This document shows, in pieces, positions 25,453-53,129 of a DNA stretch of 59,668 nt. Source of the stretch: a virus (lineage: Duplodnaviria; Caudoviricetes); IMG/VR virus record IMGVR_UViG_3300031862_000785, positions 1 through 59,668 of that record; one strand, given 5' to 3'. A program made the position numbers and the translations under genes. How positions within the stretch are numbered: position 1 is the first letter of the stretch; each line of letters starts with the position of its first letter. The notes beneath the pieces were generated by a model. The model did not search any database, was not told the origin of the DNA, and was given only the letters and a program-made list of their open reading frames with translations.

Positions 25453-26952
25453 TCACCCCTCTGCCCCGGCCTCCGGCTGCTCCTCTGTGCGGGCTTCCTG
25501 CCCCTTGCGACCGCCAGCCCCGGTGAGAGCCACGGCCTGCCCGGTTTCCTCGGCGATCCGCGCCACCTCGGCCTCGACCGCGTCCGGGCCGTCCAGGCGG
25601 CGCACTGAGGACTCGACCGAGGTGTTGCCCGAGGCCAGGCGCTGGCTCTCGATCTCCACCATCTCCACCATGTCCTCTGGCAGCCCATCCGCCCACTGGA
25701 TGGTCGGCTCGGCAGGCTCGTATTCGCCGGACCCGTGAGTCACATCAAGAACCTGGGCGGTGAGGAGCGCCGCTTTGAGCGCGGTATCGTAGTAGAGCCG
25801 CTTGCGGTTGATCTTTGCCAGGGTGCGCAGCAGTCGAAGCCGCAATGCCCGGCCGCTTTCGGCGACTCCGAACTTGTCCAGCCCGAAAGCCGACGGCGCG
25901 GTCTCGGAGAGCATGAAGAGCAGGTCGAGCAACTTCTCGAACTGTGTGAAGGCCGCGGTCAGGTGGGCGTCCCAGGTGATGTAGGAAGGAGGCTGATCGC
26001 CCGGCCCCAGCTCGATGGTCTCCATGTGGTCGAACCGAATCTTCCCATCTTCGTCCACGAAGCCGGGCGGCACCACGATCTTCGGAGCCACGTGCTTATC
26101 CAGCACTTCATCGATCTGGGAAACGCGGTTATTCAAGGACTCGAAGAGCGACTCAAGGCCCTCATAGTCGCTGATCCCCCAGAACCGCGAGCCGTACCGG
26201 AAGTTGGGGACGTGGAAGATCGGGATGTGATCCAGGCCGGTCTGTTCCTCTTCGGGCAGGTCCTGATAGGCTTCGAGGGTCTTCAGGGGAATCTGCTGGA
26301 GCGCCTTGCCGCCAATCGTGATCGTCGCGGCCTGGCTTCCCGCGACGGACAGAGTGGAGACGCTGCCCAGATCGAAGAGCTGGTGGCGGATGACGCCTGG
26401 CTCGTGCACCTCGGCTCGCAGGTAGGCGCGCTTGGCATCCTTGGGATCGCGCTTCACCCAGGCAAGGGTGACGCGGATCACCTTGCGCACATCATCGTCA
26501 TCCAGTTCGGGGAAGTAGATGCTGGCGGGGACCTCTTCAATGATCGACTCTGGTTGCTCTGCTTGCGGAGTCCGCTTCCCCCAGCGCACCTTGTAGACTG
26601 CATCCCCCCGGAACGAGTTGGACAGGGCCGATTCGTAGTTGACGGCGTGCAGGTTATTGCGACTGACGACCTGGGCCAGCGCTTCCTGCGCCTTCTCATC
26701 CTCCTGTGTTGCCAGGCCCGCCTTGAGCGAAGCCGAAAGGAAGTCTGGCTGCTCCCCGAAAAGCAGGTCAGCGGAAAGCCGCGAGATCAGCCCGGCGAAG
26801 TTGGCCACGATATAGCGCTTCATCTGGTAGGGCTGCGGCACCACGGCAAAGACCAGCTTGTGCTGCCCCAGGAACAGCCGCTCATACCGCTGGTAAGTGG
26901 CGATGCGCTCCTGGTGCCCCTTGGGCGGGTAAGTGCTCAGGTCAAGTGCCAC
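25453..26952 (-). CDS. Portal protein (SPP1 gp6-like)
   Basis: 499 aa; NFAGLISRLSADLLFGE, HVPN, WGISDY, ESGRALR; AAGGAG RBS. Confidence 0.9.
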   Translation of the reverse strand: MALDLSTYPPKGHQERIATYQRYERLFLGQHKLVFAVVPQPYQMKRYIVANFAGLISRLSADLLFGEQPDFLSASLKAGLATQEDEKAQEALAQVVSRNNLHAVNYESALSNSFRGDAVYKVRWGKRTPQAEQPESIIEEVPASIYFPELDDDDVRKVIRVTLAWVKRDPKDAKRAYLRAEVHEPGVIRHQLFDLGSVSTLSVAGSQAATITIGGKALQQIPLKTLEAYQDLPEEEQTGLDHIPIFHVPNFRYGSRFWGISDYEGLESLFESLNNRVSQIDEVLDKHVAPKIVVPPGFVDEDGKIRFDHMETIELGPGDQPPSYITWDAHLTAAFTQFEKLLDLLFMLSETAPSAFGLDKFGVAESGRALRLRLLRTLAKINRKRLYYDTALKAALLTAQVLDVTHGSGEYEPAEPTIQWADGLPEDMVEMVEIESQRLASGNTSVESSVRRLDGPDAVEAEVARIAEETGQAVALTGAGGRKGQEARTEEQPEAGAEG

Positions 26953-27060: not shown

Positions 27061-27089
27061 ATTTTATGCCCGGGGTCTCCCAGCGTCAA
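27061..27089 (-). promoter_or_regulatory. Sigma70-type promoter
   Basis: TTGACG-N17-TAAAAT. Confidence 0.7.
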
Positions 27090-27817
27090 GCAGTGGTTGT
27101 GCCACAGAATCTCTGTTGCAGCAACTGAAAGTCCTCCTCCAGCCGATCATGATAGTCGGGAAGATATTCGAGGATGACGTTCCCTTGCCAGCCATACCCG
27201 ATCAAAGCTTCCACAACCTGCAGGCACTCGTCATCGATTGGCAGGTGATGCGTTCTGTGGCCGCCCTTGCCGGAGAGATGGACGGTGGAGACATGCGGGT
27301 GGTACTCATGCACGATCCGCCACACCACTTCCGTGTCATGAAGGTGGGCGACATCCAGCGTCATCGGGCGTGCAAGTCGCATGATGTCGTCGACGCTGAA
27401 AAGTCGCTTGCCTCCCATGAAGGTTTCCAGACAGAAGCTCACCGAGTAGGCCGCCTCGATTCCCCGGCAGGTTTCCAGTACCCTATGCTGGGTTTCGGGC
27501 ACCGGCCGATCCTTCTGAAACCTGCTGGGATGAACGGTGATCTCGCGGACTCCGAGGAGGCTGGCGAATCGGCCCACCTCCTCCGCCCAGATCCGGAAAC
27601 CTGGGTCGGCGAGCCTGCCCTGTGGAGCATGAACGCTGAGGATCGGCGTCCGCCATTTCAGGAGTAAGCCAGCGAGTTCGGTGAGGTGGGGATGGATCAG
27701 CTCGTAGTCGGTCATCTTGTATGGCAGCGCGAGTTCGATGGGAATCTGACACTCGCGATAGCGCGGGGTGAACTGCTCGAGCGTGTTGAATGATTGCCTG
27801 ATCCCGAATCTGATCAT
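27086..27817 (-). CDS. Xylose isomerase-like/AP endonuclease 2 TIM-barrel protein
   Basis: Metal-ligand motifs IELALP, SVHAP, TVHP, LET, TLDVAH, VHLS, HLP, LEY. Confidence 0.8.
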   Translation of the reverse strand: MIRFGIRQSFNTLEQFTPRYRECQIPIELALPYKMTDYELIHPHLTELAGLLLKWRTPILSVHAPQGRLADPGFRIWAEEVGRFASLLGVREITVHPSRFQKDRPVPETQHRVLETCRGIEAAYSVSFCLETFMGGKRLFSVDDIMRLARPMTLDVAHLHDTEVVWRIVHEYHPHVSTVHLSGKGGHRTHHLPIDDECLQVVEALIGYGWQGNVILEYLPDYHDRLEEDFQLLQQRFCGTTTA

Positions 27818-27818
27818 G

Positions 27819-28676
27819 TTACGTCGGGGAATCCTCCCAGAGCCTGACTTCCAGTTGCTCCAGGAGCGCATTCAGGCGCTCATAGGCATCGCGAGTCACG
27901 ATGGCACGCTCCTCCGGATCGGCGATCTCAAGAAACTCAGCGACCGCGACCGGCCCGAAATGCTCAGGTGAGAGGAACTTGCTCCGTATCTTCGACAAGC
28001 CTTCAGCCACCAGCCGCTTGTCGACATGAGGCCGGAAGGCCTCCACCAAGGCAGCAACACCTCCTGGGTAGTTGGCGACGCAGTAGAAGATGTCGTAGCA
28101 ATCCTTCTCCTTGCGCCGGTCATGAAGAGCCATCCCCTTCATCACGAGGAAGGCCACTACGTCTGCGACCTTCACGGTCACCGTGTCAAGCGCACCGTTC
28201 GGCAGCCGTCCCTCGACGCGAACCTGGACGCAGTGGTCGAAGACCAAGTCAGCCCCACGTGCTTTGCGGGCTCGGACATCCTGGACGACCTGCGTGCGGC
28301 GGCCCTTCCCGGTCCCCCCGTACTCTCCGGCCAGGAGATCAACTTCGACCTCGACCGGCGGGCCATCTCCGATGGTGACCACCTTGAAGAATCGGAAGGG
28401 CTGCTCGTGGTCTTGTCGGTAGCCGCGCGCCTCAAGCGCCTTGAGGAACGTGCTGTAGGTATCGTCTGAGATGTGCGCAAAGTCTATGGCCAGATCCACG
28501 TCCAAGGTGCCCGCTGGCTCTGTGTCTGCATCGCGGAGGATCAGGTGCGGCACCCAGCCGCCGATGACCGCGATGTGTTCGCGGAACTCGCCGAGCATGC
28601 CGAACAACTCGATGAGCACCGAAAAGGCCGCGTCTACTGCTCTGGCTGCGTAGTCTGATCTGGTTCTGGGTTCCAT
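27819..28676 (-). CDS. AbiEii-like nucleotidyltransferase toxin
   Basis: VIGGW...GTLDVD, VDLL, MKG.A..DR..EKD.YDI. Confidence 0.8.
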   Translation of the reverse strand: MEPRTRSDYAARAVDAAFSVLIELFGMLGEFREHIAVIGGWVPHLILRDADTEPAGTLDVDLAIDFAHISDDTYSTFLKALEARGYRQDHEQPFRFFKVVTIGDGPPVEVEVDLLAGEYGGTGKGRRTQVVQDVRARKARGADLVFDHCVQVRVEGRLPNGALDTVTVKVADVVAFLVMKGMALHDRRKEKDCYDIFYCVANYPGGVAALVEAFRPHVDKRLVAEGLSKIRSKFLSPEHFGPVAVAEFLEIADPEERAIVTRDAYERLNALLEQLEVRLWEDSPT

Positions 28677-29866
28677 CGCGGCCTAATGCGCCTTTCGTAG
28701 AGGAAGTCTGCGGCCTCTTCGCCACGGCCCTTGTAGCTCTTCAAGTCGAGGTAAAGTTGGATGTCCGACACGACCTTCGCTCCCCCGACGTCCTGGAGAC
28801 CATAGAAGACGCCCTCATCGTAGGGGCGGAGCAGGATCACGTTGGCCCCCGTGGGGACCGCCTTCAACTCCAATGCCGCTGCAATCTCATTGAACTTGGA
28901 GAGCCTGCGCAGCAGGTCGAGCTTCAAGTCCTGCTCGATATCCTCTCGGTCGTCCTTGGTGAACCCGGCCCGGCCGACTAACTGCCAGGCCTTGTGTCTG
29001 ATGAGCTGAACGGCATAGTCCTCGAGTCTCTCATCAACGAATGCAAAGGCGCGGTCATAGCGAGCGAAGGGGGCAACCCGGCTTGCACCCGAGAACAGGG
29101 CCAAGCCGTAGCGCATGCCTCTCCGTTCACACTCCGCGGCAAGGCGCTCCTCCACCTCTGGAATGCGGAGCATCGAGTACAGAGACCGCACGTCGTTCAC
29201 TTCGTAGGTGTAGGCCTGCGCCCAATCGCGAAGGAGGTCTTCAGGTTTCGCCAGCCAGAAGCGGCGGCGCTCTTCGCCCAGCAGGTCTTGTTCGAGCAGC
29301 GCCCGCTTCAAGTTGGACGTCTGCGCAAGACTGATCCGCGCTTCGGCCGCCAAGTCGCGGACATACCATCGCCGGGCAGGGTCAGCGAGTAGAACACGTA
29401 AGACCCGCGTGGACCGCGGTGAGAACAACGCCCTCCGAAGTCTCCGCACGGGCGAGGGATTGGGATATCCGGTCTTCTCAATGAACACCTGGTCAAAGGC
29501 GAGCAGAACATTCCCAGCCAGATCGAGACAGCCGACCCCGAACTGCTGGCAGAGAGCCCGGCCCCGGTCGCTTATGTAGGGAGCAGCCACCACCCCGTAG
29601 GCATCTGGCACACTCGCGACATAAGCCTTGAGCTGCTCTCCGGCATCACGCAGGGTCCTCGGAAGACCCTCTGTCTTCACCTCCACCAGGAGCCGGCGCG
29701 CTCCGACGGGCGTCTGAATCTCCACCACCAGGTCGGAGACGCGCCCGGGCGCGATGGGGACCTGCTGCTCGATCCGCAACACATCCACGAATGGCACTTC
29801 CTCCAGCACCTCACGAAGGCGCTGGGCGGTCTCTGCTGTCAGATTTCTCTCTTTGATCGCTGGCAT
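28634..29866 (-). CDS. AbiEi-like type IV antitoxin carrying a 44-aa insertion
   Basis: DLVVE..LLVEVK, APYIS, LDLAGN, wHTH, then GANVILL.PYD.GV and VVSDIQLYLDL...GRGEEAA. Confidence 0.8.
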   Translation of the reverse strand: MPAIKERNLTAETAQRLREVLEEVPFVDVLRIEQQVPIAPGRVSDLVVEIQTPVGARRLLVEVKTEGLPRTLRDAGEQLKAYVASVPDAYGVVAAPYISDRGRALCQQFGVGCLDLAGNVLLAFDQVFIEKTGYPNPSPVRRLRRALFSPRSTRVLRVLLADPARRWYVRDLAAEARISLAQTSNLKRALLEQDLLGEERRRFWLAKPEDLLRDWAQAYTYEVNDVRSLYSMLRIPEVEERLAAECERRGMRYGLALFSGASRVAPFARYDRAFAFVDERLEDYAVQLIRHKAWQLVGRAGFTKDDREDIEQDLKLDLLRRLSKFNEIAAALELKAVPTGANVILLRPYDEGVFYGLQDVGGAKVVSDIQLYLDLKSYKGRGEEAADFLYERRIRPRWNPEPDQTTQPEQ

Positions 29867-29934
29867 GGTCTGCTCCAACCTGACGGTGAACAAAGTCGCC
29901 CTGGCGAACTGCCAAGGTGTTTCGGCAAGTCGCC

Positions 29935-29983
29935 AGTTTCACCGTCTCGGTGAAACTATACCATATACCGAAACAATGGTCAA
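29935..29983 (-). promoter_or_regulatory. Moron promoter with overlapping operator palindrome
   Basis: TTGACC-N17-TATAGT with extended -10 TG; perfect inverted repeat AGTTTCACCG-N3-CGGTGAAACT at 29935-57. Confidence 0.75.
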
Positions 29984-30317: not shown

Positions 30318-31943
30318 CTACCATCCCGCCGGTCGTTGAGTCGTGCCGCGAGACACACCCCGCTTGCGCGCTTGCCAGGCGATCCCGGCTGCCATCACCC
30401 GGTCGTCGAACTTGCCCTCCTGCGCCTCCTGCGAACCCGTGTCTGTCGTGACGAAGGTTAAGCACTCGTCGACCAGGTCGGGCGAGTGAACCAAGGGATG
30501 CTCGCCTGCGATTGCCGCCGCCAGGTCATCTACCAGGATGGGCTTGGTGGCCTGGTCGGTGGGCCAGCCGAGCATGGGCTTCCCTTTGCCCGTCTGGTCG
30601 TAGCGCACGTGGTAGTAGAGCCGCGGGTAGCGGCAGACGTTGCGCAGCGTGTTCAGCGTCGAGTGCCCGTGGTTGTTACGCTCGACCGCTACCGTCGCCA
30701 GGTTGTAGAAACGGCCCAGAGCGTCCAGCAGGCAGCCGAAGCGATCCGGCGCAATGCGCCCGTGGAGTTCGGCGACTTGCTCCCCGGTCTCCCGGTCAAC
30801 CACACAGGCACAGGAGGCGTCGCCGCCGGCCAATCCCTCGCCCACGTCCGCACCGACGACGTAGAGCCGCCCCTTCTCGGGTCGCTTCCACACCGACAGC
30901 CGGGCCGGCGCAACCCCGATGTCCTGCCCTCGCGCATCCTTGAGGGCAGCCAGCATCTTTGGCGCGGGCTCGGCGACGATGCGAGCCTGGATTGCCAGCA
31001 GCGACTGGGTGTCGAAGCAGCAGCGCCCGCTGGCGAGGAAGCAAGTCACATCATCCTCAGGGTATTCGGCCTTGAAGCGGTCTCGAAGCTGCCGCTGCTT
31101 ATCGCGCCGCCAACGAATCTGATCGTCGTCGAGGCTCCACGCGCGTTTGAGCCGCGTCTCCTCCTGGCTGAGGTCGGTCAGTGGCTCGCCCGCGATCCGA
31201 TAGGCCGGGTCTTCCCACCAGACATAGAACGCCGTCGCAAAGTCATTGCCGCCGCTTTTGGCCTCGGTCCAAAGGCTGTGAAAGAAGTTGCCCATCCCAT
31301 TTGCGGTGGACTCGATGACGATTCGGCCACCGGTGGGAACCGCTTCCGTCAGCGCAGTCAGGGCTTCTTCAGGCTTCGGCCAGAAGGCGAACTCCGAGCA
31401 GTGCAGGTTGTTGATGGTCTGGCCCCGTCCGAACGTCAGGCTGCCGGCGGTGCCCACGTAGAACTGGCTGTTGATCTTCGGCCACAGGAACTCTCTGCGG
31501 TTGGAGAAACGAGGCGGCCCTACTCGTCGGCGCTCCTCCTCTGGCAGCCGCTCCCAGAACAACTGCACGATGCGGAAGATCTTCTCGCTGGAATCGGTAT
31601 CGTGCGCCACGATCACCGAAGTCGTATTCAGTCGCAGCAAGGTGTCCGCGAAGAACAAGCCGCAGATCAGCGTCGTGAAGCCGAGCTGCCGCGGCTTCAG
31701 AATCATGTCCCGAAGCGTGCGGTGAGCCCAGTAATCTACCTGGGCCGCGTTGAGCAGGAACGGAATCACTCGTCTATCCTTCGTGCGAATCCACAGGTTC
31801 GCTTCGATCCACGGCCTGGGATTCCGCCGCTCCTCCAGCAGGGCCGCCAGCCGGGCCTCCAGCGCCTCTCGCACACGCGCGGAGGAAGGTAAGGGCAGAT
31901 TCGGCCTCGCTGTCGCTGAGTTGTCGCAAATCGAGGTCACCAA
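30318..31943 (-). CDS. terL: Terminase large subunit
   Basis: LKPRQLGFTT (Walker A), LHCSEFAFW (Walker B), IESTANG, GADVGEG, VERNNHG, DDRVMA; start uncertain. Confidence 0.93.
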   Translation of the reverse strand: MVTSICDNSATARPNLPLPSSARVREALEARLAALLEERRNPRPWIEANLWIRTKDRRVIPFLLNAAQVDYWAHRTLRDMILKPRQLGFTTLICGLFFADTLLRLNTTSVIVAHDTDSSEKIFRIVQLFWERLPEEERRRVGPPRFSNRREFLWPKINSQFYVGTAGSLTFGRGQTINNLHCSEFAFWPKPEEALTALTEAVPTGGRIVIESTANGMGNFFHSLWTEAKSGGNDFATAFYVWWEDPAYRIAGEPLTDLSQEETRLKRAWSLDDDQIRWRRDKQRQLRDRFKAEYPEDDVTCFLASGRCCFDTQSLLAIQARIVAEPAPKMLAALKDARGQDIGVAPARLSVWKRPEKGRLYVVGADVGEGLAGGDASCACVVDRETGEQVAELHGRIAPDRFGCLLDALGRFYNLATVAVERNNHGHSTLNTLRNVCRYPRLYYHVRYDQTGKGKPMLGWPTDQATKPILVDDLAAAIAGEHPLVHSPDLVDECLTFVTTDTGSQEAQEGKFDDRVMAAGIAWQARKRGVSRGTTQRPAGW

Positions 31944-32380: not shown

Positions 32381-33718
32381 TTATCCCGCCTCCGGGCGCC
32401 TGGGAAACCGCGCCCCGTCGCCCGCGCGGATCGCCTCCTTGCCCGTCATCCGTTGCCAGCGCTCGATGGTGACGTCGCAATAGGCCGGCTGCAATTCGAC
32501 CGCGCGGCAGCGTCGTCCCAGCCGTTCGGCCGCGATGAGCGTCGTGCCCGCGCCGCAGAACGGCTCCAGGATGAGACCGCCCGGATCGGAGTGCAACTTC
32601 AGGCACCGCTCCGGCAACTCCACCGGAAACATCGCCGGGTGCACGTCGTTCGCGGGCACCGTGTTAATCTTCCAGACGCCTGCATATCCCCAGGCCTTGC
32701 GCTCCCCCTGGGTCAGCCGTTGCACGAAGCGATGCTGCGCCCGGGCGAAAGCCGTGACGAAGGCGTAGGGTCGCTCCTCGGGCATTTCCAGCGTGGCGGT
32801 CTCATCCGCGAAGGTCGCCACATATTCATACTGCTGTGCCGGTTTGTTGGAGACGAGGTGATAGGGCCCCACCCCGAAGTTCAAGCCCTGCTTCTCCCAG
32901 ATGCGAATCCAGATGGGCCGCATCCCCGCCTGCATGAAGAGTTGAATGGAATAGGCGAGCGTGGGCTCGATGAACTGCGTGCCGGTGGCATATAAGTCCA
33001 CCATCTGCCAGCAGACGATCTCGGCATACCGGCCCAGGTTCTCGATTACCGGCTTGACGGTCTCGAACCAGGGCGCGATGCCCTTCTCTTCATATTCCTT
33101 GCCCACACCATACGGAGGCGAGGTGATAGCCAGTTGGGCTTTGCTGCCTTCCAGAAGTAACTCCAACGTGTCCGGATCGCGGGCATCCCCGCAGATCAGC
33201 CGGTGCTCGCCCAGCTCCCAGATGTCTCCACTCTGGGTGAAGGGCTCGGCTGGCGGCTCACCCGGGCCCGGGTCGATCATCCCGGATTCCTGTCCGGTCT
33301 CCAGACGGGAGAGAAGCTCACGCAGCGAATCTTCATCCCAGCCGGTGGAATCCAGCGTGCCCGCCTGCTGGCGCTCCTGCAGCAGTCGAGCCAGGATCTG
33401 CTCGTCGTCAACTGCGAGACGGACTGTCTCGTTGTCATCGAGCAGGTAGGCTCCCGGATTGCTGCCGGTATAAACCTTGACCGCCACTTCGAGCCAGCCA
33501 GCAGCCTTTGCGGCCACGAGCACCCCATGCCCTGCCAAGATCACACCCTCCGGTGTCACCACGATGGGCTTCTGCTGGCCGTGGCGCAGCAGACTCGCTC
33601 GCAGCACCTGTATCTGCTCCGGCGGATGCGAGCGGTAATTGCGAGGGTTGGCCTGCAGGCGCGCGATAGGCCAGAGTTCCACTTCGTATTCGATGTCGGC
33701 TGCTGCTCGCTCAGTCAT
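32381..33718 (-). CDS. ParB-like domain fused to an N4-C/N6-A DNA methyltransferase
   Basis: NPRNYRSH, ILAGHG; GDIWELGEHRLICGD, TSPPY, HPAMFP, EPFCGAGT. Confidence 0.9.
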   Translation of the reverse strand: MTERAAADIEYEVELWPIARLQANPRNYRSHPPEQIQVLRASLLRHGQQKPIVVTPEGVILAGHGVLVAAKAAGWLEVAVKVYTGSNPGAYLLDDNETVRLAVDDEQILARLLQERQQAGTLDSTGWDEDSLRELLSRLETGQESGMIDPGPGEPPAEPFTQSGDIWELGEHRLICGDARDPDTLELLLEGSKAQLAITSPPYGVGKEYEEKGIAPWFETVKPVIENLGRYAEIVCWQMVDLYATGTQFIEPTLAYSIQLFMQAGMRPIWIRIWEKQGLNFGVGPYHLVSNKPAQQYEYVATFADETATLEMPEERPYAFVTAFARAQHRFVQRLTQGERKAWGYAGVWKINTVPANDVHPAMFPVELPERCLKLHSDPGGLILEPFCGAGTTLIAAERLGRRCRAVELQPAYCDVTIERWQRMTGKEAIRAGDGARFPRRPEAG

Positions 33719-34385
33719 CGCCTGTCTCCGCCTCTGCCCTCTCTTCTGAACAAGCCTGCCCCGATACGAAGTGGCTGCAGATCGCCGCCAGGCATTCCCC
33801 CCGCCGTGCGCCTTTTCCCAGTTGCTGTTTCGCCTGACGCATGGCCGCCTCGAAGTAGTCATGCTCCTTGCCCAACAGCACGACCGTCACCGGAACAGGC
33901 GCTTCTGCCGCCTCCCGCATGGCCTGTTCCTCCAGCTTGCCTTGCAGGTCGGCCGGAAGCTTCAGCAGCTCCAGCGAATCCCGCAGTTGGCTCTCCGACC
34001 AGGGCAGCATGTTCGCCAGGTCATCCACCGAGTAGGTGCGGTTCAGATTATGCACCAGGTTGGCGAGCCGGACCGGGACCGGCTGGCCGCGCAGGTAGTT
34101 GAGTTGCAGTCCTCTGACTTTCGCTTCTTCAGGCGAGATGTGCCAGACCTCACAGGGCAACTCCTCCAGGCCGAGGTCGCCGGCTGCCTTCCACCGGTGG
34201 TAGCCGTCAACCAGCAGGAACTCGCCTTCGCGGTCTGGATCGGGCATGACCTTGAGCGGCTCCATGATGCCCTTCTCCCGAATGCTCTCCACCAGCTTCG
34301 GATAGTTGGCTGGGTCGAACGCGTTGGCGTTCCAGTCATTGGGTCGAATGCGCTCTCGCAAGATCATCTCAGGCACGGTCCACAC
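33711..34385 (-). CDS. ParB/Srx-like domain protein
   Basis: PNDWNAN, SIREKG..EP, LVDGYHRW, NYLRG. Confidence 0.85.
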   Translation of the reverse strand: MWTVPEMILRERIRPNDWNANAFDPANYPKLVESIREKGIMEPLKVMPDPDREGEFLLVDGYHRWKAAGDLGLEELPCEVWHISPEEAKVRGLQLNYLRGQPVPVRLANLVHNLNRTYSVDDLANMLPWSESQLRDSLELLKLPADLQGKLEEQAMREAAEAPVPVTVVLLGKEHDYFEAAMRQAKQQLGKGARRGECLAAICSHFVSGQACSEERAEAETGDD

Positions 34386-34713
34386 CTCCCGAAAGCAGAC
34401 TCTCCAGGTCGTCCGTGATCAACAGACCCAACGTGACAGCCTCCTCATGCTCTCGCCGCGCTCCCTTGCTCTGCTCCCAGCCGGGCAGCAGTAGGATAGC
34501 GTCACAGGCTGCCAGCCACTCCATGCCCAGCCGCAGGAAGTCGTCGTAACCACACGTCTGCTCCCACCCAGCGGTCATCGTGTGCGGGCAGAACGGCGTG
34601 TGCCCTGCCTTGAGTAGCCGCTGCGCAGCCAGGCTCGCACGTCGAATGTTCTCCAGGCGCGACTCATCGCGTCCGTCTTGTGGGGTGTAGGGGCCTGCCA
34701 CGTAGACCTTCAT
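34369..34713 (-). CDS. DUF4406-like (nucleoside deoxyribosyltransferase-fold) protein
   Basis: VYVAGPYT...CDAILLLPGWEQSKGARRE. Confidence 0.85.
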   Translation of the reverse strand: MKVYVAGPYTPQDGRDESRLENIRRASLAAQRLLKAGHTPFCPHTMTAGWEQTCGYDDFLRLGMEWLAACDAILLLPGWEQSKGARREHEEAVTLGLLITDDLESLLSGGVDRA

Positions 34714-35747
34714 CTCAGCATCTCTCCAGCGAGTATGATGAACTCGCGGTTCGCCTCCCGCTTTGCCTGGGTGGCCACCGCGTTCATGTGGGAGTAGGCG
34801 ATCTCCACTGCTCGCGTCGGACGGAAGCGCTCGACCGCCCCCCGCACCGCACCGAGGTCGGCCACCGCGTTCCCGTAAGAGATCACCCAGAGCGGGTAGG
34901 CTCCACACTGCTCCAGCAGCGAAGCGAAGTGGTTCAGCCCATTGCGCTCCGAAAACGCGCTCGTCTCATGGCGCTCTCCCAGTATCTCGTCCAGGACGCG
35001 ATATTCCTCCTCGTAGGAAAGCGTGCCGCTATAAGGCGGGTCGAGGTAAAGCACCTCTGCCCCCTCGCCGGCGCGGATGGTCTCCAGCGCATCGCCCTTC
35101 ATCGTCTGGCACGGCTGTGAGCCACGCGCTATCGCCCGGTTGATATCCTTTGCCAGCGCCCGCACTGCCGGCAGCGGGTGGCTCGCGTTGGCGGCGATAG
35201 CGTGCTTGTAGGTCGCCTTGATGTCGTCCCATCGCTCTTCTGCAAAGGGCCGGTTGAAGGCGCCCGGTGACGAAAACTTCGAGTGCGGCCGCAGCCAGTA
35301 GATGTACTTCACCAGCAGCAAGCGCAGCAACGCTTTCTTCATCTCGTCCTCGACCTGCTCGACAACCACAAAGGCATTGTCGAGAAAGCACGCCGCGGCC
35401 AGCGCGAAGCAGTCCGGCACATAGCGCTCCTCGATCAGGTGTCGGTTGCCCTCGGCTGGCACGAACAGCCGCAGCAGGTCTTCCTGGTTCAGCTTCACGC
35501 CGTCATTCTCAATCAGCGCCTTCCCGATAATCACGCTCCGCTCGGCCAGATCGGCACACAGCACGCCGAAGCCCTGCGCCTTCGCGTATAGGCTCACGCT
35601 GCCTCCGCCCAGGAACGGGTCGACCAGCCGCAGCGACGGCCATGTCTCGCGCGGATGCACCCGCGCTATCTCTCGGAAGATGCGCGGGCAAAGCCGCCTC
35701 TTCCCGCCGAAGTATGGTGGCAGCGCCTCAAAACCACGCCAGGGCAT
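34710..35747 (-). CDS. D12-class N6-adenine DNA methyltransferase
   Basis: PYFGGK, DPFLGGG, YLDPPY. Confidence 0.88.
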   Translation of the reverse strand: MPWRGFEALPPYFGGKRRLCPRIFREIARVHPRETWPSLRLVDPFLGGGSVSLYAKAQGFGVLCADLAERSVIIGKALIENDGVKLNQEDLLRLFVPAEGNRHLIEERYVPDCFALAAACFLDNAFVVVEQVEDEMKKALLRLLLVKYIYWLRPHSKFSSPGAFNRPFAEERWDDIKATYKHAIAANASHPLPAVRALAKDINRAIARGSQPCQTMKGDALETIRAGEGAEVLYLDPPYSGTLSYEEEYRVLDEILGERHETSAFSERNGLNHFASLLEQCGAYPLWVISYGNAVADLGAVRGAVERFRPTRAVEIAYSHMNAVATQAKREANREFIILAGEMLR

Positions 35748-35959
35748 CAGGCCGCCCTCCGCATCGCAGGTTGGAACAGATCGCAGCGCACTTCCTCGAA
35801 ATCCATCGCATCCAGCCACTCCTGCGGCAGCGCGTGCGGCTCGCCATCCATGCGGTGGCGCAGACAGGTTGCGTAGACTGCTCCGTTCACATGCACCCTC
35901 GGCCCCTGGTACCTGCATCGTGCACATTCGGTTTTCCGGTTGCAGCGTCTATTCATCAT
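35747..35959 (-). CDS. Small Cys-rich hypothetical protein
   Basis: CARC..C..C pattern; coupled to both neighbours. Confidence 0.5.
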   Translation of the reverse strand: MMNRRCNRKTECARCRYQGPRVHVNGAVYATCLRHRMDGEPHALPQEWLDAMDFEEVRCDLFQPAMRRAA

Positions 35960-36284
35960 CGCCGCCCTTGACGCTCGGATCGCTACCATGCGCCAGCCAG
36001 ACCAGCCCGCACAGAGCGTAGCCCGCGATGTCGCTCAGCAGTTCTCGCCACTCTCCTTCCGGTGCCTCGCCGCGCTCCACGAAGGTATCGAATCTGGCCA
36101 GCTTGTCCTCCAGCCGCACCAGCAGGCCGGCGAGCCCGCGCTTCCGCCAGCACTTGAGAGCATCGGCACCGGCGTAGGCCGCATTGCGCTGACTCACCAG
36201 CATCGCTACGGCCTCAGTCTGTGCAGCCAATGCGCGCTTGAACTCCCTCCGACTCATTGCCGGGTTGACCTCAGTGCGTCGCAT
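35949..36284 (-). CDS. DUF1599-like nucleotide-modification-associated protein
   Basis: RNAAY...GLLVRLEDKLAR...L.DIAGYAL. Confidence 0.7.
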   Translation of the reverse strand: MRRTEVNPAMSRREFKRALAAQTEAVAMLVSQRNAAYAGADALKCWRKRGLAGLLVRLEDKLARFDTFVERGEAPEGEWRELLSDIAGYALCGLVWLAHGSDPSVKGGDDE

Positions 36285-37893
36285 TCTCGAAGGCTCCAGC
36301 CAGCGACCGCTGCGCGGTCCGTCGTTTCATCTGCGCCTGATACTCATCGCAGATATCGATCCCAATCCACCACCGCCCCAGTTCCTCCGCCACCTTGAGC
36401 GTGGTGCCGCTGCCGGCAAAAGGATCGAGCACCAGCGCCGGACGTGTCGGCCAGCGCTCGAGGATCTCCGCCGGCCACCTGTCTGCTTCTATCTCTCCCG
36501 CGCCGGCGCACTCTGGGCACGGTTCGTCCACAGGTTCTCTCTGCAGTCGCACCAGGTGCGGGTTGTTCGCCTGGTAGGGCGACTTGTTCTGCTCGGCGGT
36601 GTTCGGGCCGGCCTCCGGATATTCCAGAGCTTGCCCGGTGCCGCCGCACTGTTCGCAGGTGACCACGACTTCCTCCGGCTGCCCATGACAGGTGCAGGTC
36701 GGCTGCCAGCCGAGCGTTGTGACGCGATACCTCGCAACCTTGCCGAGAGTGCTGGACTCGTCGCGCTCCTGCCCACCCGGCGGCCGACCCTTGGTCGAGT
36801 AGTTTCCGCCCGGCCCGTTCGGATAGCCGGTGTTATCGATCTCCCGTTGAGTCTGCCGCTGCCAGGGCGCGCCGCAGTCTGCACAGACCTTCGGCGGTGA
36901 TCCGGCCAGGATGCAGCGCCGGGGCAATTCGGGAGGGAAGACCGCAAAGTGCGCGCCGGGATAGCCGACGGTCGAGAATCGCCAGACTGAGCGCAGGTTT
37001 GCCCCAAGCGGATTCGGGCCCTTTTCCCGGATGCGACTCTTCGTATCACCAGGAGACTGAGCGAGAGTTCCCGCCGCGTCCTTCTGGTGGCGAGGGACGT
37101 AAGGTTCCCACGTCGTCTGTTCCGAATACGGTTCGCGCACCGCATCTGCGTCGTAGAAGTAGCGCTCGCTCTTCGCGAGCAAGAGCACGTATTCGTGTCC
37201 TTCGGTTGGACGATCCTTCACCGACTCGGGCATGGGGTTCAGCTTGTTCCAGATCACCACGGATCGTATCCACCACCCGTCCGCCTGCGCCGCTAGTGCC
37301 ACCCGAAACGGGATGAGACACATATCTTTCGGTTTGAGTGACGCGTGATTGCCCGTCATCGGCGGCCGATCGGTGAAGCCATCCCACGCCGCCCGGGGAA
37401 TGCGCTCCTGGTGCGAGGACCGCTGTCGCCCGCGTCGGCTGCCGTAGTTGCCCCAACTCCCGAAGAAGGTGTCGCCCAGGTTCCACCAGACCACTCCGTC
37501 GGGGCGCAGCACACGGCGGATCTCGCGCAGGACGTAGACCGTGTGCTCCACGTACATCTCTGGCGTGGGCTGCAGGCCGAACGGCCCGCGCCAGGCGCCG
37601 CACTTCGCGCACGCGGAGTCCTCTCGCCAGCGGGCCGCTTTCAGCCGCGCGGCGTTGCCTTCGCCGGCCTCACTGAAAGCCTCCCTGCTGCCCCTGGCGA
37701 GCGACTGCTCGGCGTAGTAGCGGCGCGAGGCCCACTCGTGCTCGCAGTCGGGATCGCCGCCCCACACCGCCTCCTGCTGGCCGTCATAGCGCCGTAGCCC
37801 CCAGTAGGGCGGGGACGTGACAACACACTGGACGCTCTCTGCCTCCATTTCTTGCAGCACATCCACGCAATGGCCTATTCGGACTTCCCGCAT
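36271..37893 (-). CDS. N4-C/N6-A DNA methyltransferase (beta class) with Cys-rich insertions
   Basis: VTSPPYW, RRVLRPDG, HFAVFP, LDPFAGSGT; several CxxC pairs. Confidence 0.92.
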   Translation of the reverse strand: MREVRIGHCVDVLQEMEAESVQCVVTSPPYWGLRRYDGQQEAVWGGDPDCEHEWASRRYYAEQSLARGSREAFSEAGEGNAARLKAARWREDSACAKCGAWRGPFGLQPTPEMYVEHTVYVLREIRRVLRPDGVVWWNLGDTFFGSWGNYGSRRGRQRSSHQERIPRAAWDGFTDRPPMTGNHASLKPKDMCLIPFRVALAAQADGWWIRSVVIWNKLNPMPESVKDRPTEGHEYVLLLAKSERYFYDADAVREPYSEQTTWEPYVPRHQKDAAGTLAQSPGDTKSRIREKGPNPLGANLRSVWRFSTVGYPGAHFAVFPPELPRRCILAGSPPKVCADCGAPWQRQTQREIDNTGYPNGPGGNYSTKGRPPGGQERDESSTLGKVARYRVTTLGWQPTCTCHGQPEEVVVTCEQCGGTGQALEYPEAGPNTAEQNKSPYQANNPHLVRLQREPVDEPCPECAGAGEIEADRWPAEILERWPTRPALVLDPFAGSGTTLKVAEELGRWWIGIDICDEYQAQMKRRTAQRSLAGAFENATH

Positions 37894-38287: not shown

Positions 38288-40609
38288 TTATGCGGCGACC
38301 AGGTTCACGCGGCTGCCTTCCGCGTTCTTCGTGACGTCGAAGCGGAAGGGGAACAAGTCCTTGAGTTCCTCCACGTGGGTGATGACCAGGATGGTGGCGA
38401 AGCGCTCGGCCACCTTCTGGAGGCACTCGACGAACAGCGCTCGCCCTTGCACGTCGAGGGGAGCTGCTGTCTCGTCCAGAACAAGCAGTTCGCACCGCGC
38501 GCCGGCCCGGCTGGCCAGCAGCACGGACAGCGCGATGCGGAGCGCGAGGTCGACGCGCATCGCCTCGCCGCCGGAGAAGTTCTCGTAGGAACGAGCGCCG
38601 CGCTCGTCGGCGATGATGATGTCCAGCGTCTCCTGGAGCGTCTTCGCCTTGGTCTCCCGCTGAGAGCGCAGCTCCAGGGACATGCGGCCGTCGCTCAGCA
38701 CCGACAGCACGTCGTTGGCGACCGCCTCAAGGTCAGGCACGGCCTTCTCGATAAGGAGAGCCGGGATGCCCTGCTTGCCGAAGGCCTGCGCCAGCACTTT
38801 GAGCACCTGCAGGCGGCGCTCGTTCTCGCGCAGTGCAGCCGCAAGCTCCTCGGCTTCCTTGGCTGCTTGTTCAGCAGCTCGCAGGCGCTCCTCGAGGCTT
38901 CCGCGCTGCTGTCGGAGGGACTGGACGCGAGCCTGGAGATCGCCAATCGCTGCCCGCGTCTCCTTGAGGCTGCGCTCCACCTGGGCGAGCATCGCGTCCC
39001 AGTTGCGCTGGGGTCCGAGTTCCTTCTCCAGGGCCGCCTTGCGCTCCGCGATCTGCTTCGCCTCGGCCTGAATCGCGCCGAGGTTGACCTGCACCTCAGC
39101 CATCTGGGCTTCAGCGCGTTCCACTCCCCGCAGAGACTGCTGGAGTTCCTGGAGCCGGCCAGCCTGCCGCTTGGCCTCGGCATGCTCCTTCGGGTCGTAA
39201 GCGATCTCCACGCGCTGCTCAGCGATCTCTCGCAAGCGCGCCGCCTCTTCGTCTCCGGCCGTGTGCGCCTGGAGTTCTTGGATCCGGCGCTCGTCTTCAG
39301 ACCACGGCTGCTCCGACTGCAAATCTCGCTGGCGGCTTTCAAGCGTAGGCAGCGCCGATCTCGCTTCACGGGCCTGGGCAATCAGCGGGCACTTGTCTCG
39401 GATGGCGAGGAACGACGGGCGCGTTGCTTCGTCCACCGGATTGGCGCAGGGCACCTTGTCCAGCACTTCGCTCTGCTTGGTGAGCAGCGCGACCTGCTGC
39501 TGCAAGCTCTTGCCCTCGCGCTCGTGGGCACTGCGCAAGTGGGCCACGCGCTCTTTGAGCGCCTCGACCTTGCGGGCGTGCTCCGCCACCGCCGACTGTT
39601 GGCGCTGGCGAAGCAGTTCGGTCTCGTGGAGCAGGCGCTCATCCTCCTGGCGCTTTGCCTCGAGTTCCTGCGCGTAGATATGCGCCTCTTCGGCCCGCCG
39701 CAGGCCTTCGAGGATGGCCGGCTTGTCTTTCGCAGTCCGCCGCAGCGACTCCAGCCGGGACGCAGCTTCGCCTATGCCCGCTTGCGCCCGTTGCGCCCGG
39801 GCGGCAAGATCGTCAAGTTCCTTGCGGCGAGCGCGGTCGGCCTCACGATCGGCCAGCAGCGCCTCTTTCGCCTCCTGCGCCTGGGCAAGCTCGCCCTCGA
39901 TGGCCGCCGCTTGGCGCGCCACGTCGCCCTGTGTCGCCTCGTTCTGAGCGATCTGCTCCCGTAAGCCGTCTACCGCAGCACCCGCCGCACGTAGCGCCTC
40001 GTGGCGCGCTTTCTCGCCTTCGATCCGCGCCGCCAGGTCGCGCCCCATCTGCCGCGTCATCTCGGCACGGCGCTCCCAGGCGGCGAGGTCGAGGATATCG
40101 GAGAGCACCTGCTTGCGCTCCGCAGGCTTGGCTTGACTGAAGGCGGCGACATTGCCCTGATTGGCGCAGGCCGTGACGGTGAACAGGTCGTCGGTCAGGC
40201 GCAGCATCTGCTCGATCCGTCCCTGGGTCTCGGCCACGCTCTTGCCGTCCAGCACTGTCCAACCATCGCCGTTCGATCCGCCTTCGCCAAGGCTTTGGCG
40301 GGCAAGCATCTGGAAAGAGAGCAACGTGCTGCCGCTCCCCTTGCGACTGCGCTGGCGAGACACCAGGTAGGTACCCTGGCCCAAGGCAAAGGCGAACTCG
40401 ACCCGGCAAGCCTGCTCGCCTTCCGTGATCACGCCGTCGAGACCGCCGCGGGTGTGGCCGAAGAGGGCAAAGCGCATCGCGTCCACAACGCTCGACTTCC
40501 CCGCGCCGTTCCGGCCGCTCAGCACCGCGAGGGTGACGCCGTCGAACTCGATGGTGTGCTCGCCGCGATAGGACAGGAAGTTGTCGAGGGTCAGCCGGAC
40601 CGGTCTCAT
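38288..40609 (-). CDS. sbcC: SbcC/Rad50-like SMC ATPase
   Basis: GRNGAGKSS, coiled coil, FSGGE signature, LVLDE, ITH. Confidence 0.92.
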   Translation of the reverse strand: MRPVRLTLDNFLSYRGEHTIEFDGVTLAVLSGRNGAGKSSVVDAMRFALFGHTRGGLDGVITEGEQACRVEFAFALGQGTYLVSRQRSRKGSGSTLLSFQMLARQSLGEGGSNGDGWTVLDGKSVAETQGRIEQMLRLTDDLFTVTACANQGNVAAFSQAKPAERKQVLSDILDLAAWERRAEMTRQMGRDLAARIEGEKARHEALRAAGAAVDGLREQIAQNEATQGDVARQAAAIEGELAQAQEAKEALLADREADRARRKELDDLAARAQRAQAGIGEAASRLESLRRTAKDKPAILEGLRRAEEAHIYAQELEAKRQEDERLLHETELLRQRQQSAVAEHARKVEALKERVAHLRSAHEREGKSLQQQVALLTKQSEVLDKVPCANPVDEATRPSFLAIRDKCPLIAQAREARSALPTLESRQRDLQSEQPWSEDERRIQELQAHTAGDEEAARLREIAEQRVEIAYDPKEHAEAKRQAGRLQELQQSLRGVERAEAQMAEVQVNLGAIQAEAKQIAERKAALEKELGPQRNWDAMLAQVERSLKETRAAIGDLQARVQSLRQQRGSLEERLRAAEQAAKEAEELAAALRENERRLQVLKVLAQAFGKQGIPALLIEKAVPDLEAVANDVLSVLSDGRMSLELRSQRETKAKTLQETLDIIIADERGARSYENFSGGEAMRVDLALRIALSVLLASRAGARCELLVLDETAAPLDVQGRALFVECLQKVAERFATILVITHVEELKDLFPFRFDVTKNAEGSRVNLVAA
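40277..40306. repeat. REP-like hairpin, family A, in frame in sbcC
   Basis: Minus strand CTTGCCCGCCAAAGCCTTGGCGAAGGCGGA encodes LARQSLGEGG. Confidence 0.6.
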
Positions 40610-41829
40610 GCGGCACCTCCTTCTTGCAGCGCCTGCTCCACGGTGCGCGCTTCGGCAATGAGAGCCTCCGTCATCGGTTGAAGGTCGGGGCGCTGCTCGA
40701 GCCAGGCCTTGAGCGTATCCTCCAGCGCCATCTCGGACGAAACCTCGACGGCCCTGCGGCGCACAGCCTCAGCACGCTCAGTCTCGACCTGGTATTCGTG
40801 CACGCCGGCTGCTTCGAGTTCGCGGCGCAGCGCGTTGAAGTCCACATCATTGGCCTGAGGGATTCGCACCCGCACGATTGCGCCGGCCAGCTCCTCTGCT
40901 GGAGGCAGGGCCGCGCCGTCGCCGAGTTCCACGGTGATGAATCGGCGGTAGGGCGTGCTGATGCGTTTGACATCCCCGATACCCTGGGGCTCGAGGGACA
41001 CAAGGAGATAGCCTTTCTCCTCTCCCTCTTCCCCGAAGGTGACCGCTTCGGGAGAGCCGCAGTACCAGACGTGCGGCAGCCCGCCGACCATCTGCGGCTT
41101 GTGAATATGGCCGAGGGCGAAGTAGCAGAAGGGGAGAGCGGACAGATCGTGGGCGTTCAGCGTCCATTCCCCTCCGAGCATCATGAGTCGGTTCTGGCCG
41201 CCCGCCTGCGCCAGGTCGACCGAGAAGTGGCCCAGCAGTATCGCGGGAATGCCAGGAGTGAGCTGCGCGGCCAGTCCCCGCAGGCAGTCCATCATCTTCT
41301 CCCGCACCAGCTCGTTGAGCTGGCCCGGGTCGAGTTTGCGGTTCTCTTCACTCGCAAGCAGCAGCTGCTTGTTGGGCCAGGGCAGGCACGCGATCTGAAG
41401 GTCAGCCTGCTTCGCCGTGCACGACCGCAAGAAGTCGCGCTGTTCGGTCTCAAGATGCTGGAAGAACAGCAGCGTTGGCTGGTCGATTACTGCCAGCCCC
41501 TCGGTCTCCCGCAGCAGGTCGAGGGCATGCTGTTCCACCGGAGACCGGGGTGCGTCGTGGTTGCCAAGCAACAGCACCACGGGCACCCCGGCCTCCAGGG
41601 CCGGCCCGACCGCCTCGCGGAAGAGCCGCACTTCCGTGGGCGTGGGCCGACAGCCGTGAAACGCATCGCCGGCGTGAAGGATCGCCTGCGCCCCCCGAGC
41701 GAGACCATCCTCGACGGTGAACCGCGCGCAGCGGTAGAAGTCCATGAGCCTCGCGTTCAGGCCAGTCTCTGAGTCGAGCCTGCTCCGTTGCGAGGAGAGG
41801 TGCCAGTCCGCGGTGTGAACGAGCTTCAT
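40606..41829 (-). CDS. sbcD: SbcD/Mre11-like nuclease
   Basis: HTADWH, HAGDAFH, GNHD, ALGHIH, YCGS. Confidence 0.92.
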   Translation of the reverse strand: MKLVHTADWHLSSQRSRLDSETGLNARLMDFYRCARFTVEDGLARGAQAILHAGDAFHGCRPTPTEVRLFREAVGPALEAGVPVVLLLGNHDAPRSPVEQHALDLLRETEGLAVIDQPTLLFFQHLETEQRDFLRSCTAKQADLQIACLPWPNKQLLLASEENRKLDPGQLNELVREKMMDCLRGLAAQLTPGIPAILLGHFSVDLAQAGGQNRLMMLGGEWTLNAHDLSALPFCYFALGHIHKPQMVGGLPHVWYCGSPEAVTFGEEGEEKGYLLVSLEPQGIGDVKRISTPYRRFITVELGDGAALPPAEELAGAIVRVRIPQANDVDFNALRRELEAAGVHEYQVETERAEAVRRRAVEVSSEMALEDTLKAWLEQRPDLQPMTEALIAEARTVEQALQEGGAA

Positions 41830-51846: not shown

Positions 51847-52782
51847 TCAGAATGCAGGAACCTCGCTCATGGAAGGCCCCCGCTGTTCCCGCAGCTCTTC
51901 GTGCGGGGGAACGCGCTGGTAGAAGTTGTCAATCACGTTCGGGCTGCCGCCGGAGCGACAGAGCGAAAAGTATGGACACGGCCGGTAGTGGTGAAAGCAG
52001 AAGGCGGTGTTCTGGTACCAGGCGTTCCGCCGCCTGGCGTCGAGGAAGGCCTGGGTGAGTTCCCACAACTCGGCGCGCAGCACGGTGAACTGGTCGCGGG
52101 AGAGATAGAGCATCTCCCGGTGAAACATCGCCGGCTGAGCATACTTAGCTGCCAGGCGATCCGCGAACTCGGCCTCGCTCTCCGTGCGGCGCTGCTTCAG
52201 CCGCGCCTTGAGCAGCAGGTTGTAGAACACGCCGGTGATGCGAATGCTGAGCGCCTGCTCCAGGTAGTAGGCGTAGAGCGTGATCTGGAAGTCGGTCCAG
52301 AGGCGCTCCAGGTAACCGCCGTCAAGAGCAGAGGCGGTCTTGTGCTCCAGCACGAAGTGCTCGTCTCCGACGCGGACGAGACCGTCCACCTTGCCGGCGA
52401 GCACGAAACTGCGAGAGCGCGCCCTGGTGGCCGGGTTGATGATCTCGCCTTCGAAGGTGTGCTCGAGAGCGAGAACCTCGAACTCCTCGGCCGGGTAGCG
52501 ATTCGCGTAGCCGGCCATCATCGCTGTGCCCAGACGCCAGTCCCGGCGCTGCTCATCATCCTGGACTCGGGCCGGCAGCCTCTGGTCGACGTGCTCCAGC
52601 ACCGCTGCGAGGTCGCGGTCGCGGTGCCAGATCTCCAGGCACTCGTGGACGAGAGTCCCGAAGCCGAGGCGCGGGTCACGCCTGATCGGCGCAAGCTCGC
52701 GCATGTAGCGCCAGTAGCAGGCCTTCCGGCAGTTGCGAAACAGACTCCACATCGAGTAGGTGGTGGTCATGCGAGGCGTCAT
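51847..52782 (-). CDS. PD-(D/E)XK (RecB/Cas4-like) exonuclease
   Basis: FRNC, GTLVH, GKVDG..VLEHKT, Q...Y, C..C..C cluster. Confidence 0.85.
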   Translation of the reverse strand: MTPRMTTTYSMWSLFRNCRKACYWRYMRELAPIRRDPRLGFGTLVHECLEIWHRDRDLAAVLEHVDQRLPARVQDDEQRRDWRLGTAMMAGYANRYPAEEFEVLALEHTFEGEIINPATRARSRSFVLAGKVDGLVRVGDEHFVLEHKTASALDGGYLERLWTDFQITLYAYYLEQALSIRITGVFYNLLLKARLKQRRTESEAEFADRLAAKYAQPAMFHREMLYLSRDQFTVLRAELWELTQAFLDARRRNAWYQNTAFCFHHYRPCPYFSLCRSGGSPNVIDNFYQRVPPHEELREQRGPSMSEVPAF

Positions 52783-53129
52783 CGGCGAGCCTCCGCCACC
52801 AAGGCGTCCTCGCGCTGGCGTCCGACTCGCTCGATGCGGAAAGCTTCCTCTCCGAACTGCCGGATGAGGAAGTTGGTGAAGATGCGAGCCACCGTGTGGC
52901 CCGCCTCCGTGCGGGCGTCCACCACGAGGGCGCGCTTGTCATCGTCGGCACAGAAGGAAACATCCAGGCGGATACAGGAGCGGCCGTGAAGGCCCTCCGC
53001 CGCGAAGATGGAGAGCAGAAGCGACTCGTGCACCTCCTTCATGCACGCGCCGGGTTCGAAGCGAAAGCGGTAGATCTCCGGTGTCATCGGTCTCTCCATC
53101 CTGGTTGGGCTCAACCTCGCCCACTTCAT
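52779..53129 (-). CDS. Hypothetical protein
   Basis: 116-aa ORF coupled in the operon (start may be the internal MTPEIY). Confidence 0.65.
   Translation of the reverse strand: MKWARLSPTRMERPMTPEIYRFRFEPGACMKEVHESLLLSIFAAEGLHGRSCIRLDVSFCADDDKRALVVDARTEAGHTVARIFTNFLIRQFGEEAFRIERVGRQREDALVAEARR

Follow-up and report, generated by a model that had tools for sequence, protein, structure and literature searches.

The DNA analysed here, hereafter the window, is the viral record IMGVR_UViG_3300031862_000785 over its 59,668 nucleotides (nt), the genome of a temperate tailed phage that carries a two-gene cassette resembling AbiE toxin-antitoxin pairs between its genes for the large terminase (30318-31943, minus strand) and the portal protein (25453-26952). 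The upstream gene of the cassette encodes a putative antitoxin and repressor of the AbiEi_2 family, and the downstream gene a nucleotidyltransferase, which is the putative toxin (Table 1). Inside the C-terminal domain of the antitoxin we observe a foreign segment, joined in frame, which aligns to the beginning of sigma factors of the extracytoplasmic function (ECF) type and is found at this site in a single phage lineage.

The AbiE-like cassette and its inserted segment

Table 1 Features of the cassette and of the resident sigma gene (window coordinates; aa, amino acids).
Feature	Position	Strand	Remarks
Chimeric AbiEi_2-family putative antitoxin/repressor, 419 aa	28634..29893	(-)	Open reading frame and Pfam match
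132-nt, 44-codon in-frame insert	28889..29020	(-)	Antitoxin residues 292-335; source, codons 12-55 of an ECF-like sigma gene (199-aa class)
Hexamer CTCGAG (Leu-Glu) abutting the insert	29021..29026	(-)	Possible junction microhomology of 0-6 nt, or co-import with the insert
Partner nucleotidyltransferase, AbiEii-like putative toxin, 285 aa	27819..28676	(-)	Intact; overlaps the antitoxin reading frame by 43 nt
Promoter-like site TTGACC-17-TATAGT	29935..29983	(-)	10/12, TG extended; consensus match only
Resident ECF-like sigma gene, 206 aa	53132..53752	(-)	Relative of the donor, paralogue class; 83/132 nt across the segment

The antitoxin gene has an uninterrupted reading frame (a shorter product of 410 aa, which begins at a start codon further downstream, is also on record), and its product passes the Pfam AbiEi_2 model (PF09952) with 34.4 bits at a cut-off of 21. 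This match comprises only residues 335-403, equivalent to profile positions 78-142, and P0003, a relative that lacks the insert, covers positions 2-142; the insert therefore splits the AbiEi_2 domain at about profile position 77/78. The toxin is full length, with six residue differences from the copies in two sister proviruses, and retains the motif G39 G40 ... D59 x D61, which is invariant in 84 sequences. Its family matches are weak, with 24.6 bits to NTP_transf_8 (below the cut-off of 26.3) and E-values of 1.2e-3 and 3.3e-3 to the PADLOC AbiEii models, and some of its relatives carry a precomputed PF08843 assignment. Between the promoter-like site and the antitoxin start lies a perfect 10-nt palindrome, AGTTTCACCG N3 CGGTGAAACT, which is a candidate operator for autoregulation.

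The translation of the insert, DYAVQLIRHKAWQLVGRAGFTKDDREDIEQDLKLDLLRRLSKFN, is identical to the 44 residues quoted in an earlier sequence-only reading of this DNA. That reading had described a gapless alignment to the resident sigma-like protein with 23/44 identities counted by hand, which corresponds to what BLASTP returns over residues 10-55 of that protein (24/46 identities, no gaps, E 7e-12). In a six-frame search of the whole record, the insert is the sole second match to the resident sigma protein (E 1e-9), and at up to 3 mismatches the window contains one match to the insert, hence no further copy. The homology of the insert to members of Sigma70_r2 (PF04542) is seen through the BLASTP match to the resident sigma and through the best donor protein, with which it shares 39/44 residues. 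Profile searches do not detect it: the isolated insert, as a 44-aa or a 48-aa piece, matches no Pfam family at E≤1, Sigma70_r2 included, and the whole chimeric protein gives no sigma match in Pfam at E≤0.1. The resident sigma itself scores 25.2 bits on Sigma70_r2 (cut-off 24) and matches PHROG 1740, 'RNA polymerase sigma factor', with 1.9e-12, and it falls under the NCBIfam sigma70-ECF cut-off (31.8 vs 42.9).

The insert is unique within its family. The search with the antitoxin gave 821 homologues at E≤0.001, of which the best 119, with the window's own protein excluded, were aligned; they are 345-384 aa long, and the anchor residues F283 and L341 delimit exactly 15 residues in 119/119, vs 59 in the window protein. 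The proposal that the segment could be a normal part of this AbiEi subfamily is thus ruled out, as none of the 119 homologues has it at this site, and the sequence-only reading, which had left open whether it is unique or conserved, can be completed: it belongs to one lineage. The nearest antitoxins without it, P0003 and P0004, are identical to the window protein at 363/375 and 359/375 positions (insert left out of the count), and P0003 reads AFVDERLEEIAAALEL across the site, which is precisely the AFVDERLE-EIAAALEL that had been predicted to reappear once the 132 nt are taken out.

At the DNA level, both sister proviruses (locus L003 of genome G001 and locus L004 of genome G002) lack exactly the 132 nt, with flanks that are 96.2% and 95.7% identical to the window. 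Whole-record BLAST gives 88.0% and 86.1% identity for these two sisters, and the alignments stop at 28888/29026 and 28888/29019, respectively. A viral scan with the antitoxin as query found 2 loci, neither of which carries the insert, and a metagenome scan with a 48-residue query found 15 loci, none matching past query residue 46 into the AbiEi flank. A genome scan returned one 20-residue match on a Bradyrhizobium contig, which is no relative. No long non-sigma protein contains the whole segment among the 22 other matches described below, and among the best 150 of 362 matches in a set of 1.84 billion representatives the whole segment occurs only near the N-terminus of proteins of up to 471 aa; three long proteins in these 150 match only over 17-23 residues, within repeated stretches. 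The insert-bearing allele is accordingly known from one lineage in one sample.

The sequence-only reading had named a chimeric assembly as the finding that would undo it, and the contigs speak against such an origin. The sequencing run X1, which is probably the source of the window, holds all sampled words of the stretch, and its assembly by a different assembler gives a 3509-nt contig that covers 28300-29600, crosses both junctions with 0 differences and has a mean depth of 136.6. Three runs from other sediment studies (X2, X3, and X4) each skip 137 nt and have 5 other letters in their place, a net difference of 132. No insert-less contig was found in X1, where contigs drop rare variants, so that this is no evidence of absence. 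With sigma genes the junctions have no more than 6 nt in common, far under any assembly k-mer, so that a k-mer graph could hardly have made these joins without reads crossing the junctions. The insert matches the resident sigma at 83/132 nt and the retrieved donor loci at no more than 112/132, and is therefore no copy of those, and the insert-bearing protein has also been recorded on a contig 89,953 bases long. What favours an artefact of assembly or sequencing is that the insert-bearing form comes from a single run, probably the window's own source, and that the check was made at the level of contigs. On the contig evidence we reject misassembly and regard an artefact as extremely improbable.

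Donor gene and junctions

A search with the 44 residues finds 22 other proteins, all sigma-like and 165-210 aa long, whose alignments cover 66-100% of the segment at 67-97% local BLAST identity. These 22, together with the sigma protein of G002, form the donor set (n=23). The segment begins at residues 7-12 in 23/23 donors and is preceded by Leu/Ile-Asp/Glu in all except one, which has Leu-His. Every residue of the insert is present in at least one donor, and thus the insert shows no private changes. On Sigma70_r2, the sigma of G002 scores 24.8, above the cut-off given above, and the donor P0122 scores 23.7, just below it.

The antitoxin of G002 is insert-less, yet at the locus that is occupied by a 206-aa sigma allele in the window and in G001, this genome has one of 199 aa. 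Over the segment, the G002 gene is identical to the insert at 112/132 nt, with the stretch EDIEQDLKLDLLRRL exact, and two metagenome sigma loci agree at 111/132 and 105/132. A sigma contig from run X3 differs from the insert at 2/83 positions and continues through the CTCGAG hexamer. The resident sigma, with 83/132 nt, is ruled out as donor, which agrees with the earlier view that the donor is a relative and not an exact copy of it. As judged from these alignments, the view can be sharpened: the donor belongs to the 199-aa allele class found at the same locus in sister phages. The counts of synonymous and nonsynonymous codons that separate the insert from the donors (6/8 to 13/9) reflect divergence among sigma alleles and not change after insertion, and were not used.

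Two sigma allele classes, of 206 aa and 199 aa, occupy one position (53132-53752 on the minus strand of the window; L005:1501-2121; L006:1501-2100); they have their first 33 nt in common (30/33), as well as the downstream gene, and are very different between. The captured segment begins exactly where the two classes start to diverge. The sigma locus itself is thus a recombination mosaic among sister phages. After the sigma gene lies an open reading frame of 116 aa (52779-53129, minus strand) without family match, whose relatives are found just downstream of sigma in 44/56 loci fetched. We consider its product a candidate sigma partner or anti-sigma factor.

Along the gene strand, the order in the window is GAGAGACTCGAG, then the insert, then GAGATT. 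The hexamer that abuts the insert is CCTGAC in the insert-less alleles of L003 and of runs X2-X4 and CCCGAG in L004, and the protein of P0003 has Leu-Glu at these positions. Directly before the segment, the donor genes have CTCGAC, or CTCGAG in one locus (L052), and the left edge of the insert therefore has an uncertainty of up to 6 nt. In the five bases ahead of the junction, the window has three differences from L003 and one from L004, and insert-less alleles vary among themselves at this site (Pro/Leu/Ala, then Glu/Asp). Two histories fit these observations: a recipient that already had CTCGAG was joined to the donor through microhomology of up to 6 nt, or 137 nt of donor replaced 5 nt of recipient. 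No homology was found at the right junction, and neither terminal inverted repeats nor a target duplication at the ends of the insert. Inteins require Cys, Ser or Thr at the positions where the insert has Asp (first residue) and Glu (the residue following its final Asn). With unfit end residues, no inverted repeats and no target duplication, an intein or a transposable element is rejected, and a structured RNA is rejected as well, since the whole window has no Rfam match. Taken by their sequence, the junctions carry the signature of illegitimate recombination and not that of a mobile element.

Fold of the chimera and predicted toxin binding

The AlphaFold2 model of the antitoxin has a mean predicted local distance difference test score (pLDDT) of 88.2 and a predicted template modelling score of 0.81, and its domain order is an N-terminal alpha/beta domain, a winged helix and the C-terminal AbiEi_2 domain. 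The winged helix is assigned from Foldseek, which aligns the middle of the model to winged-helix regulators such as CadC, HlyU, and NolR, with probabilities of 0.99-1.00 and weak E-values (0.017-0.037). The N-terminal domain (residues 1-145, 29459-29893, minus strand) resembles PD-(D/E)xK nucleases of the EndoMS/NucS type (Foldseek 5gkj, E 3.2e-4; 2vld, E 6.7e-4) and has a D...ExK-like stretch (DLVVEIQ...LLVEVKTEG); the canonical two-domain AbiEi has no such domain.

In the model, the insert follows the strand 282-287 and forms a helix (292-306), a short loop and a second helix (313-340) that runs into the native helix EIAAALEL. Taken block by block, the insert has a pLDDT of 55-78, vs more than 90 around it. 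The model of the donor P0122 (pLDDT 70.5) has helices at 12-28 and 35-51, which are precisely the captured piece and which align to the start of region 2 of RpoE from Rhodobacter sphaeroides (PDB 2Q1Z). The insert is thus predicted to be a complete two-helix hairpin comprising sigma regions 2.1-2.2, the first half of region 2. The complete region 2 bundle is absent, as the donor helix 61-80 and everything beyond it are missing from the insert. Without the remainder of region 2 and any part of region 4, the insert cannot function as a sigma factor.

We also modelled the complex of antitoxin residues 225-419 with the toxin. The three runs scored 0.64, 0.61, and 0.00 (median 0.61), vs 0.00 for the best of 3 controls; such a mark is reached by 116/157 solved complexes vs 2/215 mismatched pairs. 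At least 21% of contacts agree between the runs and the partner pLDDT is at least 81. The score may partly reflect likeness to solved relatives, as a homologous AbiEi-AbiEii complex, with direct binding of AbiEii by AbiEi, is reported in a 2026 preprint (10.64898/2026.01.19.700257). The predicted interface comprises antitoxin residues 239, 241, 243, 280-281, 344, 346, 348-351, and 389, and includes none of residues 292-335, bearing in mind that residues not named are merely uncertain. In these models, the insert therefore occupies a loop at the surface of the domain that neutralises the toxin, and lies outside the interface predicted with it.

Origin, possible effects and relation to known systems

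We consider it probable that the chimera arose by a recent capture through illegitimate recombination in a single lineage, and that the sigma hairpin is a tolerated passenger. The setting would most likely have been two sister phages in one cell, presumably during co-infection. A 132-nt piece, codons 12-55 of an ECF-like sigma gene, would have been joined in frame into a surface loop of the C-terminal domain of the AbiE-like antitoxin, either in the course of break repair or by template switching, guided by no more than 6 nt of homology at the left junction and by none at the right. The phage encodes a serine integrase, a Sak4-like annealing protein, an exonuclease, SSB, and SbcCD, and phage annealing proteins are described as promoting recombination between divergent DNA (PMC5499656). 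The toxin-antitoxin pair itself could then have acted as a filter: an antitoxin that was frameshifted, misfolded or unable to hold the toxin would free the toxin. This filter would remove other products, and hence what remains would be a helical hairpin that is in frame, self-contained and directed away from the toxin face. The chimera would then most likely still work as an ordinary repressor and antitoxin of the AbiEi type, with an insert that would be neutral. The absence of private substitutions, the near-identical flanks, the restriction to a single sample, the intact toxin, and the interface that is still predicted all argue for a young and tolerated passenger.

Several observations weigh against this interpretation. 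The length of the site is constant at 15 residues down to 45% identity among the 119 homologues, and an addition of 44 residues may therefore not be innocuous; moreover, the insert ends 9 residues ahead of the predicted toxin-contact loop 344-351. What was captured is a full structural unit, in the donor's own frame and without private changes, which is also expected of an adaptive or very young functional graft. From the insert-less alleles of L003, L004 and runs X2-X4 and from relatives of the donor gene, the microhomology is placed in a range of 0 to 6 nt. The insert-bearing allele is a single sequence, and both of its junctions were examined at the level of contigs.

Some of these points would also be consistent with damage, that is, with an insertion that impaired the antitoxin domain in a cassette now decaying, or with a toxin that is kept in check in some other way. 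The split of the AbiEi_2 domain in the middle of its profile and the otherwise invariant loop length agree with this, as does the description of the C-terminal domain of Streptococcus agalactiae AbiEi as sufficient for neutralisation (PMC3985639). Nevertheless, the toxin is full length with few residue differences and keeps the invariant nucleotidyltransferase residues, the antitoxin frame is open throughout, the remaining domain has pLDDT above 90 with toxin binding still predicted, and the lysogen is abundant, so that we regard damage as rather unlikely.

An adaptive graft, in which the hairpin serves as an integrated decoy or sensor, appears unlikely too. According to this explanation, binding of the hairpin, which lies beside the toxin-contact loop, would change the hold of the antitoxin on the toxin or on the operator, and the trigger would be either the RNA polymerase core or a factor that binds sigma and belongs to a superinfecting sister phage of the 199-aa sigma class. 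Sigma contacts the beta-prime clamp helices through the first two helices of region 2, and the piece consists of precisely these two; its source is the allele class that rival sister phages carry and not the resident sigma, its end is close to the predicted toxin-contact loop, the carrier lineage is abundant in the sample (depth 136.6), and the small open reading frame conserved after sigma could encode a sigma-binding partner. Against it stand the restriction to one lineage and one sample, with 0/119 homologues carrying the insert, so that the inserted domain is not conserved in related defence proteins as a decoy would be; the lack of the whole segment in any long non-sigma protein among the 22 matches and the best 150 of 362; an insert without residues in the predicted interface; and the modest confidence in its fold (pLDDT 55-78). 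A two-helix piece taken out of a helical bundle may also lose its binding surface. A more specific version, in which the antitoxin would be a detector of rival sister phages and a factor recognising the hairpin would free the nucleotidyltransferase only upon infection by a competitor, seems very unlikely; the candidate factors would be a re-programmed RNA polymerase core or the small protein encoded after the sigma gene. The sequence-only reading had offered both a recombination scar and a decoy or sensor. The scar fits all of the observations (one lineage, a clean DNA join and the sigma allele of a sister phage), and for the decoy or sensor we found no positive evidence.

New protein architectures are thought to arise from gene fragments that land inside other genes, and in bacteria and phages such cases are almost always seen long after the event. 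At this locus one can still see the recipient allele, the population without the insert, the class of donor alleles, and the two junctions, and the selective filter is unusually clear, as a broken antitoxin frees the toxin; for these reasons, the locus is a clean example from nature of how illegitimate recombination can capture part of a domain. It also provides a natural test of insertion tolerance in the AbiEi C-terminal domain. If the hairpin does bind RNA polymerase or a sigma partner, it would mean that a defence protein can gain a sensor in one step, and if the antitoxin were indeed a detector of rival phages, it would be a bacterial or phage counterpart of the integrated decoy, caught at birth. 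As it stands, this is a clean sub-domain capture that is dated by its context, and since the event was seen once, in one sample, it serves as an illustration and not as a general case.

Integrated bait or sensor domains are known from immune proteins such as plant nucleotide-binding leucine-rich repeat receptors with integrated decoys and the fused toxin-antitoxin CapRel. The likeness to these systems is one of idea only, namely that a defence protein contains part of a protein relevant to a pathogen; in those systems the domains are shared by many lineages and have been shown to bind, whereas the insert described here is a singleton. Compared to phage sigma factors of the ECF type (group 4), the insert is homologous to residues 12-55 of proteins that score at or about the Sigma70_r2 cut-off and align to RpoE, but it has the first two helices only, without the later helices of region 2 and without region 4. 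Mosaicism by illegitimate or relaxed recombination, including the role of annealing proteins such as Sak4, is described for phages (PMC5499656, PMC8136500), and the present case resembles it in that related temperate phages exchange sequence, a Sak4-like module is present and the sigma locus is mosaic. The difference is that such exchange usually concerns whole genes or modules at homologous positions, whereas here a sub-domain fragment was placed ectopically, in frame, into an unrelated gene. Literature searches for AbiEi proteins with sigma factor region 2, and for in-frame insertions in phages by illegitimate recombination or microhomology, returned no precedent.

With the AbiE pairs, as far as they are described in PMC3985639 and 10.64898/2026.01.19.700257, the cassette shares an upstream regulator gene that overlaps a downstream gene for a nucleotidyltransferase of the polymerase-beta type, a winged helix followed by an AbiEi_2 C-terminal domain, a palindrome in the promoter region, and predicted toxin binding. 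It differs from them in an antitoxin family of about 360 residues with an extra N-terminal PD-(D/E)xK-like domain, in a toxin that only weakly matches the AbiEii and NTP_transf_8 models, and in its position between terminase and portal genes of a temperate phage; this copy alone has 44 foreign residues in the C-terminal domain. By the tests possible, the profile matches and models place the locus with the AbiE-type pairs, in a longer three-domain antitoxin family.

Over 27783-29893, the cassette is 96-98.6% identical at the nucleotide level to its counterparts in G001 and G002, and the whole genomes only 86-88%, which suggests either recent exchange or strong constraint. The end of the toxin gene is overlapped by an open reading frame of 261 aa (27086-27871, minus strand), whose sole match is a weak one to the cobamide-remodelling phosphodiesterase CbiR (E 5.2e-6, 26 bits, cut-off 105); this reading frame is present in G001, and 27104-27782 does not align to G002. 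The large terminase has a best identity of 32% among 50,697 deposited phage records, and as no relative exceeds this value in the phage collection, the phage belongs to an uncultured lineage. The stretches 32381-37893 and 38288-41829 (minus strand) contain three DNA methyltransferase-like genes, one of them fused to a ParB-like domain, with SbcC- and SbcD-like genes beside them.

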